A DNA stretch of 64,000 nt from Candidatus Poribacteria bacterium (GCA_965116925.1 OZ220744.1:5216001-5280000), one strand, 5' to 3'; shown: positions 54,453-58,501, counted from the first letter of the stretch. The notes: generated by a model from the sequence alone, not told the origin. Program-made: numbers and translations.

Positions 54453-54480
54453 GAACCTTTTTTCCCCCTGCGGTGTCATT
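54453..54480 (+). promoter_or_regulatory. ECF sigma-type promoter (probable autoregulation)
   Basis: GAACCT, 16-nt spacer, GTCATT, ending 17 nt upstream of the ECF ATG. Confidence 0.6.
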
Positions 54481-54497
54481 TACAGTGAAACCCTTTT

Positions 54498-55112
54498 ATG
54501 ATGGAGCAATCAGACCAAACCCTCATTCGCAAGATCGTGAAGCGCGATGCCACTGCTTTTGAAACACTTTTTGCACGGCACAGTGCGTCTGTCCGTCAAC
54601 ATATCCTTAGCATTGTGCAAGTTGAAAGTGCCGCTGAGGATTTGGTTCAGGAGGTATTTTTGCGTGTCTGGACACGCGCCGAACAGTGGAATGGTCAAGG
54701 CGAGTTCAAGGGTTGGCTTTTCCGCATCGCAACGAATCTTGCCCTCAATCATCTGCGAACCGTGCAGCGACAGCGGCAGGAGCCCCTTGAAACACCGCCG
54801 GACGAATTCGACGACGAGGATGAACGTTCGCCGGATCCGGATTGGCTGGTCGATACCTCGTCGCGTGGTCCCGAAGTGATAGTGGAACAAGCCGAGCGAT
54901 CCCAGCTGCTCTGGCAACTTATTGATGGATTGCCCCAAGAGAAACGAGAAGTGCTCCACCTCATATATCAGAAAGAGATGGCGCTTCGGGAAGTTGCCAT
55001 AGAGCTGGGTATTCCAGAAGGCACCGTGAAGTCGCGTTTACACTACTCCATAAGACATCTCGCCCGTGAATGGAAGGAAATTGCAAGCGGTTGGGAAGAA
55101 GATAAAGAATAA
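54498..55112 (+). CDS. ECF (sigma70 group 4) RNA polymerase sigma factor
   Basis: Region 2 AEDLVQEVFLRVW...FKGWLFRIATNLALNHLR; region 4 LP...REV...EVAIELGIPEGTVKSRL. Confidence 0.93.
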   Translation: MMEQSDQTLIRKIVKRDATAFETLFARHSASVRQHILSIVQVESAAEDLVQEVFLRVWTRAEQWNGQGEFKGWLFRIATNLALNHLRTVQRQRQEPLETPPDEFDDEDERSPDPDWLVDTSSRGPEVIVEQAERSQLLWQLIDGLPQEKREVLHLIYQKEMALREVAIELGIPEGTVKSRLHYSIRHLAREWKEIASGWEEDKE

Positions 55113-55139
55113 GCGAGTAGGGACATTCCACACTCTACA

Positions 55140-55258
55140 GGACTTACGCACTCCAGATTGTAGTTGCCCGATTTATCGGGCGTATCGGGGCAGGGATGCC
55201 CCTCCCACACGTCCTTCAGTCGGGAGGAAGGGCTTTGACCGTTCAGCTGCGTAAGTCT
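55140..55258. mobile_element. MITE/REP-like element, family B
   Basis: ggacttacgca ... gtagttgcccgatttatcgggcg ... tgcgtaagtc. Confidence 0.6.
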
Positions 55259-55312
55259 TATCTATAATTTACACAAACGGAATATGCAATACGAAGGAAA
55301 TAGGAGGATAGC

Positions 55313-58300
55313 ATGTCACACAACATCACTACATTTTGGCACAAGGAATCCTTTGAGGAATTGATGAAAGAACGGCTGCCAGAGCTTCTTGCTGACCGGG
55401 TGCCGCTCGCCGGTTATCATTTTGATTCAACCGGAGGATACACCTGCCGTGTCAGAATCGTGCTGGCATCAACTGAGGGCTATGTTGAGGTTGAATACAT
55501 GGACATTCCGCAGCCTGATGGAAACGGTATGTTCACTCTCGACGGTGAACCTTATGTTGTCGTGCCGCTCGCTTCAACCGTGGAACTGGAACAAGCGAAA
55601 ATTGAGTGTATGGGTGATCAACTGTACGACTACTTCAAGGCGCGTATCAGGGAAGCACCGCCGGATATAGAATGGGATACGTCGCTTGTCCGCTCATGGC
55701 TTCCGATTGATAGATGGGTGCGTGAATTCTTTAGTGATACATTCACCGCTCAGGAACTGTCCCATACTAACTGGCTCGACAAACATACACATCTACGTCG
55801 GGTACGGATTTCGCAGGGGAATCAGGTGTTTAGCCCCGGACACTTTGGACGGACTTGTCCATTTGAAACGCCAGAGGGACCAAATGTTGGCAAGATTCTG
55901 ACGATTGCGAGGGGTGCGGAGATTCGCGATGGAAAATTGGTCATCATGGATGAAAGTCCTGAAGCAACACTTGGTCTGTCCGCCGCACTGATCCCTTTTC
56001 TCGAACACAATGATCCGCCGCGAATACTCATGGGTGCGAACATGATGCGCCAATGGTTGTCTCCTTCTGCTCCAGAAACCGCACCGATTAGCTGTCCCAA
56101 CGGAGTGTCAAGAGTGGCTGCTTCTCCGGAACCTGCGCTTGTCCAGACAGGGTACGAGCCTGATGCTCCCGACTTTTGGTGTGGGCGTAATCTGTTGACC
56201 GCTTTTATCTCTTGGGGCGGGGATACCTTTGAGGACGGCATCGCGATTAGTGAATCGTGTGCTGCGCGTCTAAATTTTCCTTACGCTATTGAACCGGGCG
56301 ATAAAATTAGTAACCGTCACGGAACGAAAGGGGTCATTTCGCGCATCTTACCTGACGATGAGATGCCCCATCTTGCCGATGGCACACCGGTAGAACTCGT
56401 TTTCAGTTTTGGTGCTTTGCATGGACGGATGAACTTTGGTCAAATCCGAGAAGCCGTCATGGGCCGCATTGCGCGGGCGGAAGGAGAAACCGCTATTGTG
56501 CCGCCATTTCAAGCCCCCAATGCCGATCAACTCCGTGAGCGACTCCAAAAGGTAGGCCTGCCTGAAGATGGGATGGAAACCCTCACGTCTGGACCTAACG
56601 GTAAGAAACTGGATCGACCGAGTACGGTTGGTTGGGTCTATTGGGGAAAGACGGTTCACATCGCGCTGGATAAGCTCAAGGCCTCCGAACCCATCGTTCA
56701 CGAGGCACCTATATACCATCAGGGGCTTGGCGAACTTGAATACTATACACTACGCAACATTTCAGCATTTGAGACATTGCGAGAACATTTCAACACCCGT
56801 GCTTCAACGCGAGTAGATGCGGAGACACTTCCCGATCGCGTTACGGGGGGGACAGTTGAGCAGGCGGGACCACCGACGCCGATGTTTGCCAATCTCAAGG
56901 AGCGACTGTCGGCGGGGGGCATCCACGCTAACTTTGATGGTGACAAACTGACCTTCCAATTTGCGAGTCCAATTGGGAATACACTCCAGCTTGCCCAGCC
57001 GGTTCCCCATCCGTGGCTACATGCTCAAGCTATTGATGAAGTTGGTATATGTGAAGACATTTCTGAGTATCGTGCACTTGCCGATGTCAATGCTAGAGCA
57101 GAGCGAATGTTTGCAAATGATGCGCCGGAAAGCCTAACCCTCCAAACCCTCAAACAACTCCAAACACGTCTTGCAGAATATTTCGACGCACTTCTAAGTC
57201 CCGCAGATATGCGCTTTACGGCACGGACGCTTTTCAGCGGGCGCAGCGTCATCGTACCAGATGCGGAGTTACGTGCTGATCAGGTTGGCATCCCTGAGCA
57301 GATGGCGTGGGCACTTTTCGGGCTGCAGGTTGCAAGAGAGCTTGGTGATACCAAAGAGGTACAGGGAAAAAGCCAGAGGGCGACGCATCTCCTTGATGAA
57401 TTGATGGCGCGTTCATGGGTAATTGTACATCGAGCACCTGCGTTTACGCCTACCTCCTTTGTTGCATTCCATCCAGTGCGGCAGCCAGACCGTGCCATTC
57501 GTGTTCCTCCCTTTGTTTGTGAATTAATGAACGCTGATTTTGATGGCGACCAAGCGGCGATTTTTCTGCCCATCACAGCGGAGGGTCAACGGGAAGCCGG
57601 TGAGCAGCTGTCTATCGCTGGGCATCTCAAACGAGATCCGAATATATGTGCAGCCTTAGCCCCGGGACATGATGCGATATGGGGGTTGGCAAGTTTAAGT
57701 CTCACACCCGAAGGGCGTGATGAACTCTCAGAAATTGTCGGGATGGAGATTGTTATTCCTGAAGGTTTGGTCACGCGGCACTCGTTAGCGGATACGCTGA
57801 AAACACTCCTCAAACGCGAAGGGATTGATCGCACCATTGAAGTCGCTGAACGTCTGATGCAGCGTGGACTCGAAATTGTAAAGGAATCGGGAGCATCTAT
57901 GAGTCCGTTCCTCAGTAGAGGCGATGGTAGTCCGCCCGTTCCTACAGATCCCGATGATGCAGCAGCGTGGAATGCTTACGCGGAAGAACTTATGGAATGG
58001 ATTGCCGCTTACGAAAACTTTGCTGATAACAACTTGGGACCACACATCCTCGCAGTCAAAAGCCGCGCCTTTACAAGCAGACTTTATCGACTCGCGTGTG
58101 TTGTCGGGGCACGAGGGACAGTTTCAGATATTCGAGATTTCGTTTGGACAATCAGGATGGTGGCAAGCCGAGGATTTGCACAAGGGACAGTTTCAGGCAT
58201 TGGAGACGGGGATATCGTGATTCGTAACGGGTATTGCGATGGTTTAACATCTGATGAACTTTATGCGCTCTGTGTCGGATCACGGGAAGGGCTTGTTCGA

Positions 58301-58501
58301 TTCAACTCCGAACTACAACGCGTTGCATGGGAACTACGCGACAGCAGCCAATCAAAAGGATTTACTGTGCTGTCTCGTGCGATGCGAGCCAAGCAGCCCG
58401 GTATCGTTTTCGCACGCGCCGCAGCGTGCGGTGAAGTTGATCCGCTTACAGATATTGACAGCCGGCTTTTCGTCGGGCTGCCCGTCACAACGTCCGAGTG
58501 A
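55313..58501 (+). CDS. Miniature single-chain RNA polymerase-like protein: fused, heavily reduced beta (RpoB) + beta-prime (RpoC)
   Basis: Beta motifs GRTCPFETPEGPN, LIPFLEHND..R.LMGANM.RQ, FEDG, GDKISNRHGTKG, RMNFGQ and GELE, then beta-prime motifs SGRSVI, HRAP and NADFDGD, all in colinear order in one ORF; AGGAGG RBS. Confidence 0.92.
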   Translation: MSHNITTFWHKESFEELMKERLPELLADRVPLAGYHFDSTGGYTCRVRIVLASTEGYVEVEYMDIPQPDGNGMFTLDGEPYVVVPLASTVELEQAKIECMGDQLYDYFKARIREAPPDIEWDTSLVRSWLPIDRWVREFFSDTFTAQELSHTNWLDKHTHLRRVRISQGNQVFSPGHFGRTCPFETPEGPNVGKILTIARGAEIRDGKLVIMDESPEATLGLSAALIPFLEHNDPPRILMGANMMRQWLSPSAPETAPISCPNGVSRVAASPEPALVQTGYEPDAPDFWCGRNLLTAFISWGGDTFEDGIAISESCAARLNFPYAIEPGDKISNRHGTKGVISRILPDDEMPHLADGTPVELVFSFGALHGRMNFGQIREAVMGRIARAEGETAIVPPFQAPNADQLRERLQKVGLPEDGMETLTSGPNGKKLDRPSTVGWVYWGKTVHIALDKLKASEPIVHEAPIYHQGLGELEYYTLRNISAFETLREHFNTRASTRVDAETLPDRVTGGTVEQAGPPTPMFANLKERLSAGGIHANFDGDKLTFQFASPIGNTLQLAQPVPHPWLHAQAIDEVGICEDISEYRALADVNARAERMFANDAPESLTLQTLKQLQTRLAEYFDALLSPADMRFTARTLFSGRSVIVPDAELRADQVGIPEQMAWALFGLQVARELGDTKEVQGKSQRATHLLDELMARSWVIVHRAPAFTPTSFVAFHPVRQPDRAIRVPPFVCELMNADFDGDQAAIFLPITAEGQREAGEQLSIAGHLKRDPNICAALAPGHDAIWGLASLSLTPEGRDELSEIVGMEIVIPEGLVTRHSLADTLKTLLKREGIDRTIEVAERLMQRGLEIVKESGASMSPFLSRGDGSPPVPTDPDDAAAWNAYAEELMEWIAAYENFADNNLGPHILAVKSRAFTSRLYRLACVVGARGTVSDIRDFVWTIRMVASRGFAQGTVSGIGDGDIVIRNGYCDGLTSDELYALCVGSREGLVRFNSELQRVAWELRDSSQSKGFTVLSRAMRAKQPGIVFARAAACGEVDPLTDIDSRLFVGLPVTTSE

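Follow-up and report, generated by a model that had tools for sequence, protein, structure and literature searches.

Whether a bacterium can carry, beside its housekeeping RNA polymerase, a second and much smaller polymerase with a sigma factor of its own is the question raised by a locus in the 6.47-Mb genome of Candidatus Poribacteria bacterium (GCA_965116925.1). The locus lies in a stretch of 64,000 nt (OZ220744.1:5216001-5280000), here called the window, from whose first nucleotide coordinates are counted. It holds a gene for a 204-residue sigma factor of the extracytoplasmic function (ECF) type (54498-55112, plus strand), identified by Pfam, by TIGR02937 and by orthologue alignments, and a gene for a 1062-residue polymerase (55313-58501, plus strand), identified by Pfam, AlphaFold2 (AF2) modelling and fold alignments, in which a beta-like and a beta'-like half are joined in a single chain. 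We refer to the latter as the mini polymerase. An original prediction, made from the sequence of the window alone, had placed the sigma gene directly upstream of the polymerase gene and on the same strand, and both genes were found where it put them. As far as was checked, the two-gene unit is real, widespread and undescribed. That their products assemble into a holoenzyme of their own, which would switch on its own operon, we consider about as likely as not.

The first gene product has the plan of an ECF sigma factor. Pfam recognises Sigma70_r2 at residues 24-91 (E 7e-17) and Sigma70_r4/r4_2 at residues 136-188 and no other domain, and neither region 1.1 nor region 3 is present. The protein passes the NCBIfam model for the ECF superfamily, TIGR02937, with 114.8 bits against a cutoff of 42.9. 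None of the named ECF equivalogs in NCBIfam claims it; the best, NF009166, gives 131 bits against a cutoff of 206, and all of the other 24 models listed for it stay below their cutoffs, the superfamily model excepted. By these scores the sigma factor is of the ECF (group 4) type and stands outside the curated named subgroups. Its orthologues align from end to end as region 2, a conserved linker, region 4 and a conserved acidic C-terminal tail (W..WEE), with the peptides ATNLALNHLR and PEGTVKSRLH invariant or nearly so. Linker residues P114, D119 and P125 and the W..WEE tail are kept across phyla, and such conservation is unusual for the linkers of ECF sigma factors. The gene is under purifying constraint in four close comparisons (ratio of nonsynonymous to synonymous substitution rates, dN/dS, 0.09-0.14). 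A search of PADLOC-DB 2.0 gave one marginal match (E 9e-4) with no stretch passing alone, and thus no defence system.

In the first half of the mini polymerase Pfam finds the domains Rpb2_3 and Rpb2_6; in the second it finds Rpb1_2, with the motif NADFDGD at residues 740-746. The AF2 model, built from 72 aligned homologues, has a mean predicted local distance difference test score (pLDDT) of 92.5 and a predicted template modelling score (pTM) of 0.90. Residues 1-545 superpose on complete chains of beta or Rpb2, some 1100 residues long (Z about 30, root-mean-square deviation, rmsd, 2.6-4.6, 438-517 residues aligned), and residues 531-1062, taken from a separate model with a pLDDT of 83.7, superpose on residues 5-1262 of Mycobacterium tuberculosis beta' (Z 19.8, rmsd 6.1, 491 of 532 residues aligned). 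The protein is therefore a skeleton of both large subunits at about 40% of their combined length. By BLASTP it is 36% identical to the beta subunit of its host (1378 residues) and 30% identical to the beta' subunit (1439 residues); its residues 586-796 align with beta' 290-535 (E 5e-23), and against solved chains the matches reach E 1e-45 for beta and 9e-19 for beta'. It does not belong to either canonical family, scoring 184.9 against a cutoff of 801 for RpoB (TIGR02013) and 82.2 against 963.5 for RpoC (TIGR02386). No NCBIfam model claims it, and no PADLOC-DB 2.0 family matched it. Normal rpoB and rpoC genes are present in the same genome about 1 Mb from the locus, and the mini polymerase gene is single-copy.

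The residues expected of a catalyst are in place. The beta active-site motif GDKISNRHGTKG (residues 329-340; 56297-56332, plus strand) aligns to GDKMSGRHGNKG of host beta and includes two catalytic-site lysines. In the 72 sequences G329, D330, R335 and G337 are invariant and K331, N334, H336, K339 and G340 are at least 90% conserved; with K331 and K339 and the fold match to beta/Rpb2, the first half has a beta-type barrel with two basic residues. In the second half NADFDGD (57530-57550, plus strand), the Mg-binding loop of the beta' double-psi barrel, aligns to NADFDGD of the host subunit, and D742, D744, G745 and D746 are at least 90% conserved, giving a beta'-type barrel with a DxDxD loop that the fold match to beta' supports. 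The segment PFLEHND..R.LMGANMMRQ is also retained, and dN/dS is 0.11-0.15 in four close comparisons. The enzyme is presumably DNA-dependent. A long helix of 33 residues (residues 980-1012; 58250-58348, plus strand) occupies the bridge-helix position in the AF2 model and matches host beta' 775-806 weakly in BLASTP (E 1.8), in a consistent position; it is presumed to be the bridge helix. Only 50 residues follow it, a large region of beta' having been lost, and on our own reading of the gaps nothing there appears long enough to form a trigger loop. The terms rudder, trigger loop and zinc domain are used here as interpretive names for alignment gaps, as distinct from software annotation. Just before the bridge-like helix lies a tandem duplication of 69 nt (23 residues; 58109-58206, plus strand, direct repeat D3), where the modelled loop falls below a pLDDT of 50 at residues 944-963. 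The duplication is present in close homologues of 1061-1062 residues and absent from those of 1039 residues, of which there are many.

Proteins of this kind form a sizeable family. Of 8000 candidates scored in a word-indexed search, 1043 proteins reached E <=0.001; the top 120 are 990-1106 residues long, share 49-91% identity and are unnamed or called 'hypothetical protein' or after Pfam domains. In an exhaustive search, whose total of 569 at E <=1e-30 includes ordinary beta subunits, 63 of the best 150 cluster representatives are 950-1101 residues long, the rest being mainly fragments apart from two far longer chains, of 1948 and 2309 residues. Within its own phylum the polymerase occurs in 32 of 176 genomes, concentrated in two families (21 of 28 and 9 of 11 genomes). 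Several complete genomes of the same genus lack it and in one it is interrupted by stops, and this patchy distribution marks the unit as accessory.

The two genes are found together almost without exception. In a polymerase-led search of contigs from one genome per species, 21 of 77 loci held true family members and the other 56 were rpoB-rpoC. In each of the 20 family members for which upstream DNA is available (L001-L020), an open reading frame (ORF) of about 200 residues lies directly upstream on the same strand; the 17 of these that were scanned with Pfam are all ECF-type sigma factors, and those of L002, L003 and L010 align as sigma orthologues. At L014 the sigma shows region 4 only, because the contig ends there. 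A sigma-led search with the peptide [TG]N[LI]ALN[HY][LI]R[STA] gave 104 stretches and 88 relatives, of which 80 were kept, and in 78 of these 80 the polymerase lies downstream on the same strand. The two counts are not to be added, since many places are common to both sets. In 44 of the 78 loci the genes are no more than about 50 nt apart or overlap. According to record titles, on which the count of eight rests, the carriers belong to Poribacteria, Latescibacterota, Chloroflexota, Hydrogenedentota, Armatimonadota, Planctomycetota, Gemmatimonadota and Myxococcota; Capsulimonas and Ktedonobacteria-like genomes are among them. The idea that homologues would usually lack an adjacent ECF sigma gene, which would have undone the original prediction, clearly fails.

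Exceptions to the pairing are few. L148 has only 376 nt of downstream sequence. No polymerase was found within 5 kb at L094, in a close relative from the Poribacteria, where the sigma gene (L094:5001-5700) has two in-frame stops and a changed C-terminus. At L157:5001-7043 the polymerase is reduced to a 202-residue remnant joining its N- and C-terminal ends (query residues 3-53 and 927-1058), and the sigma reading frame is broken into two ORFs that overlap in different frames. At L094 and L157 the pair has decayed jointly. L107 is the only locus seen with a gene inside the pair, an 801-residue prolyl-oligopeptidase (Peptidase_S9) encoded on the same strand (L107:5802-8207). The trees of the two proteins co-diverge: over 57 pairs their patristic distances correlate at r = 0.87, and 1000 permutations reached at most 0.28, once loci with an incomplete or interrupted polymerase, a sigma match below 150 residues or a gap above 1 kb were left out. 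Co-divergence is expected of linked genes, so this correlation shows co-inheritance and not contact. No third partner was found. The ORFs downstream of the polymerase in 15 loci have no common family, and clustering of 784 flanking ORFs gave only within-lineage synteny and no third gene beyond close kin, save for two very common oxidoreductase families in varying places. No recurrent anti-sigma or other third gene occurs in the 78 loci. Among proteins of 358-2000 residues at E <=1e-20 there was no fused sigma-polymerase, which is weak evidence. Gene order thus strongly supports a pairing that is close to obligate and a dedicated two-gene unit.

The unit has a promoter that appears to be its own. 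The original prediction had put an ECF-type promoter, GAACCT-N16-GTCATT, before the sigma gene; the two blocks are present at 54453-54458 and 54475-54480, separated by 16 nt, and comparison of loci shifts the conserved core slightly, to TGAAC (54452-54456), 15 nt, and GGTGTC (54472-54477). This element (54452-54477, plus strand) lies 21 nt 5' of the sigma start codon. TGAAC-N15-GGTGTC precedes the sigma gene with exact spacing in all 20 loci of the first set and in 75 of 79 of the second, and in three of the four loci that depart from this spacing the motif is present with its two blocks closer together. A chance match is excluded by the recurrence of the same motif and spacing in so many loci. 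The sigma promoter fits the GAAC/GTC-type autoregulatory pattern, and its use by the sigma factor is predicted from this fit.

A genome-wide scan for further sites gave a clear ranking. With a position matrix from 69 distinct sites, the promoter itself scores 42.1 bits and the next best site in the genome 19.2, and a shuffled genome yields no site above 18 bits. Since the matrix holds close relatives of the promoter's own site, its score is inflated; its rank is not. That next best site falls within cas1 and appears to be a chance match. In that part of the genome (5953500-5958800, in genome coordinates), cas1, a gene for a cas4-like nuclease and an IS200-like transposase gene stand together. 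The strict pattern matches the host genome five times, against 3.1 expected, and neither the pattern nor the matrix yields a second convincing promoter site there. Five other carrier genomes give 14 strict matches, five of which are the sigma promoters and nine of which lie inside ORFs of at least 140 residues; two look-alike sites proved to lie within a conserved coding gene, in antisense. The promoter has a single strong copy, the one that drives the sigma-polymerase operon, and this suggests a self-activating unit.

The mini polymerase has kept the part to which a sigma factor would bind. The clamp helices of beta' are the main dock for region 2 of sigma factors, and the segment proposed earlier to correspond to them was confirmed by BLASTP and by the AF2 model: residues 586-796 include YRALADVNARAERMF...LAEYFDALL, aligned to YRRVINRNNRLKRLM...LQEAVDALL of host beta' in the match described above, and the model has two long helices, at residues 584-601 and 606-627, which make up a clamp coiled-coil (residues 584-627; 57062-57193, plus strand; host beta' 290-333). 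The segment that follows directly is about 12 residues long, against about 46 in host beta'.

From these elements a mechanism can be proposed. Region 2 of the sigma factor would dock on the retained coiled-coil, at residues 584-627; the sigma would recognise TGAAC-N15-GGTGTC and open the DNA at the GTC element; and RNA would be made by the fused beta::beta' chain, whose two double-psi barrels are intact. The unit would then be a positive-feedback 'autogene', in its logic like a T7 RNA polymerase gene under its own promoter. A dedicated holoenzyme of this kind is suggested by the near-obligate and often overlapping gene pair, by retention of the coiled-coil while the adjacent segment was cut, by conservation of the sigma linker and tail across hosts with differing cores, and by the joint decay of the pair and the absence of any anti-sigma. 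We infer that the sigma binds the mini polymerase, either in place of the host core or in addition to it. The original prediction of a dedicated holoenzyme thus holds as regards a dedicated unit, for which pairing, promoter, co-divergence and joint decay all speak, and is still to be read conditionally as regards a physical complex. The wider statement, that a second, fully autonomous sigma-dependent polymerase with its own promoter is present in at least eight bacterial phyla and sustains itself independently of the housekeeping enzyme, we hold a little more tentatively. As to a cellular role, our guess is an orthogonal or backup transcription channel independent of the host core.

Several observations weigh against a dedicated holoenzyme, and most of them would suit ordinary ECF logic, in which the sigma acts on the host core to autoregulate its operon and the mini polymerase is the sole member of the regulon, working elsewhere without a sigma, for example in non-specific or structure-specific RNA synthesis. 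The phage enzyme YonO is an example reported to work without a sigma factor. In known holoenzymes the beta flap and the beta' zinc domain hold region 4 of the sigma for the -35 element. The flap is absent from the mini polymerase, where nine residues take the place of host beta 877-1129, which is spanned from residue 316 to residue 326, a gap seen also against solved beta chains, and on our own reading the short junction segment before the clamp core has no cysteines for a beta' zinc-binding domain. The promoter is nevertheless a canonical ECF two-block promoter in which conservation of the -35 TGAAC equals that of the -10 element, at about 1.8 bits per base. With the flap missing, no recognisable zinc domain and the -35 still conserved, the promoter is easier to explain with the sigma on a canonical core. 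The linkage, co-divergence and joint decay of the two genes are equally expected if the polymerase is the only target of the sigma, and ECF sigma factors commonly share an operon with their targets. No second intergenic copy of the promoter occurs in six carrier genomes; with one strong copy per genome no output gene was identified, and one promoter per genome is just what a regulon of one operon predicts. The unit is, moreover, dispensable.

Other evidence fits ordinary ECF logic less well. No lineage has a linked anti-sigma or regulator, which would leave a bare positive-feedback loop; the dock for region 2 is retained although the neighbouring segment was trimmed; and in eight phyla, whose host cores differ, the sigma has kept its linker and tail. 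A predicted complex of sigma and polymerase also scored above its controls, at 0.34 (0.33-0.36 in three runs) against 0.01 for the best of three. This prediction covered polymerase residues 267-1062, the N-terminal 266 residues, a possible dock for region 4, lying outside the model. At least 37% of contacts agree between runs and the partner pLDDT is at least 65. The passing mark is reached by 116 of 157 solved complexes and by 2 of 215 mismatched pairs, counts that hold only roughly here because our own alignments were used, and scores of 0.60 or less occur in only 18 of the 157 solved complexes and in both mismatches that passed. Because sigma-core complexes have already been solved, the pass may reflect similarity to them. 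The score is weak, counting to that extent against a dedicated holoenzyme, and no interface was reported; the modelling suggested earlier for the pair therefore lends contact between sigma and polymerase weak support, in the form of a score over controls. Taken together, action of the sigma on the host core alone seems to us rather unlikely, though it is the main alternative. The two readings are not mutually exclusive.

It had also been suggested that the mini polymerase is a mimic of the core that takes the place of an anti-sigma factor, its clamp helices titrating the sigma off the host core, with or without catalysis. Anti-sigma genes usually lie directly downstream of the ECF sigma gene, an arrangement that is typical and not universal. 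The polymerase gene has that position, the clamp helices are retained and no other anti-sigma is present. A decoy, however, would have no need of about 1000 residues, both barrels, the Mg-binding aspartates, the beta lysines and a bridge-like helix, with active-site residues at least 90% conserved in 72 sequences and a dN/dS of about 0.12 (range 0.11-0.15), and no other target of the sigma that needs such control was found. This makes the decoy the least probable of the explanations considered here.

A further alternative is that the unit is a selfish module of viral or plasmid origin, domesticated or still mobile, that transcribes only itself. Its spread over eight phyla is patchy, reaching only the minority of Poribacteria genomes noted above, the flanking genes vary between lineages and the promoter targets the module alone, all of which would suit such a module. 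Among 72,556 plasmid records, however, 68 matched and none with at least 80% query coverage; among 50,697 phage records 37 matched, again none with that coverage; and no family member was present among the 80 IMG/VR loci kept, where the best matches are separate compact beta and beta' genes of 22-26% identity. The families matched in PHROGs were either beta-like or beta'-like, each on its own, and their profiles had 478-1216 positions. Genes next to the module include no recurrent integrase or transposase family, and synteny is stable within Poribacteria genera. An origin from a mobile element is not supported by the plasmid, phage, IMG/VR and PHROGs searches, and we regard the selfish module as very improbable.

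At the locus itself, the surroundings of the pair are as first described. Both neighbours lie on the minus strand: upstream a GFO/IDH/MocA oxidoreductase (53096-54070) and downstream a BioD-like AAA_26 protein (58657-59418), both recognised by Pfam, and neither the ORFs of the window nor the Pfam scan showed an anti-sigma-like gene adjoining the pair. Adjoining the oxidoreductase on the minus strand is a gene for a 397-residue right-handed beta-helix (NosD-like) protein (51854-53047), and the block of these two genes is syntenic in 11 close Poribacteria loci. Beyond the BioD-like gene, two minus-strand ORFs of 398 and 405 residues (59895-61091 and 61081-62298), which look like tandem paralogues of a multi-pass membrane transporter, overlap by 11 nt at their start and stop.

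The 200-nt spacer between sigma and polymerase genes holds one copy of a dispersed REP/MITE-like repeat (repetitive extragenic palindrome or miniature inverted-repeat transposable element; 55137-55262), found from direct repeats and genome blastn, which confirms the separator originally noted. A second copy (54262-54373; direct repeats D1 and D5, 93% and 92% identical to the intergenic copy) lies 5' of the promoter, so that two copies flank the sigma gene. In blastn against the genome the spacer gave 108 matches. Coverage peaks at the repeat core (55159-55183), which is found at up to 79 places, its own included; the core, TTGTAGTTGCCCGATTTATCGGGCG, holds a short hairpin. The ends of the repeat are common to about 30-38 copies and its centre is variable. 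Since the genes nearly touch or overlap in 44 of the 78 loci, the long spacer is a local, lineage-specific insertion, and the dispersed repeat is not part of the conserved unit. AGGAGG stands 7 nt before the ATG of the mini polymerase. No terminator-like site was found on the plus strand between the two genes, sigma-70-type promoters and terminators at the locus are at background level only, and Rfam gave nothing over threshold in 53500-59500.

In the textbook view a bacterium has one RNA polymerase core, which is shared by all sigma factors. A dedicated holoenzyme at this locus would be a cellular exception to that rule and, were it autonomous, the smallest known sigma-dependent transcription system, with a chain of about 1000 residues and a sigma of about 200. 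It would provide a natural minimal model of the parts of beta and beta' needed for sigma-dependent initiation, which would take place with flap, zinc domain and any recognisable trigger loop missing, and a new data point on the reduction and fusion of two-barrel polymerases, parallel to the enzyme of a yeast killer plasmid. As a compact and possibly host-independent set of sigma, promoter and polymerase it could also be a useful orthogonal expression tool. Even if the sigma acts on the host core, a conserved accessory single-chain polymerase controlled solely by a private sigma would be an undescribed function, placed in large-genome environmental bacteria.

A pair of an ECF sigma and a fused mini polymerase was not described in the full-text literature searched, which mostly does not cover subscription journals. 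Rpb1, Rpb2, RpoB and RpoC go unmentioned in the main text of the paper that reclassified the ECF sigma factors, and one supplement to it lacks Rpb2, PF00562, RNA_pol_Rpb, PF00623 and Poribacteria. Single-chain polymerases with two barrels are known from phages, as YonO of the Bacillus subtilis SPbeta prophage and the polymerases of crAss-like phages (PMC7481178, PMC7824862). According to these sources, the enzymes are phage-borne and too divergent to align with beta and beta', and have no reported sigma. Like them, the mini polymerase is a second single-polypeptide, two-barrel polymerase in a bacterial genome; unlike them, as far as those sources describe them, it aligns readily with beta and beta', was not found in phage collections and is paired with a sigma. 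The polymerase of the crAss-like phage phi14:2 matches its beta' half weakly (Z 6.0, rmsd 4.5, 147 residues aligned), and from YonO it is set apart by description.

Compact polymerases of two subunits occur in the mReC Caudovirales, according to their description (PMC7481178), in whose main text the word 'sigma' does not occur. They resemble the mini polymerase in having a reduced beta and beta' that still align with the cellular subunits, and differ in being viral and encoded by two separate genes, of 888-901 and 1007-1010 residues. The best viral matches to the mini polymerase (E 4e-30, 22-26% identity over residues 161-995) are two IMG/VR loci, L190:2402-8332 and L234:2476-8332, in which compact beta and beta' genes are adjacent, and which probably belong to this phage lineage. 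Full-length beta-beta' fusions (PRK14844 and PRK09603, about 2840-2890 positions) share with the mini polymerase a single polypeptide and the same order of subunits; they are, unlike it, complete housekeeping subunits joined end to end, and it scores 177 and 155 bits against their cutoffs of 4632 and 5372.

A closer parallel in build is Orf6 of the yeast cytoplasmic linear plasmid pGKL2, an Rpb2::Rpb1 fusion of 982 residues (PMC2919709). To judge from that report, both enzymes have the beta-like part before the beta'-like part, fall in the same size class and have lost about half of each parent. By the same description, which is what sets the two apart, Orf6 is derived from eukaryotes, plasmid-borne and without a sigma, whereas the bacterial family is chromosomal and nearest to the bacterial subunits.

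The remaining comparison is with the bacterial holoenzyme itself, from which the unit differs in several respects. One chain of 1062 residues stands in place of the roughly 2800 residues of beta and beta' in this host; genes for alpha and omega are not linked to it, it has no flap, and neither a zinc domain nor a trigger loop is recognised; and the sigma is private to a unit that is accessory and not essential. With an ECF holoenzyme such as that of M. tuberculosis sigma-H (PDB 5zx3) it shares a sigma made of regions 2 and 4 only, a GAAC...GTC promoter, double-psi barrels with the same catalytic motifs and a clamp coiled-coil, and it is to bacterial beta and beta' that the mini polymerase is nearest by sequence.

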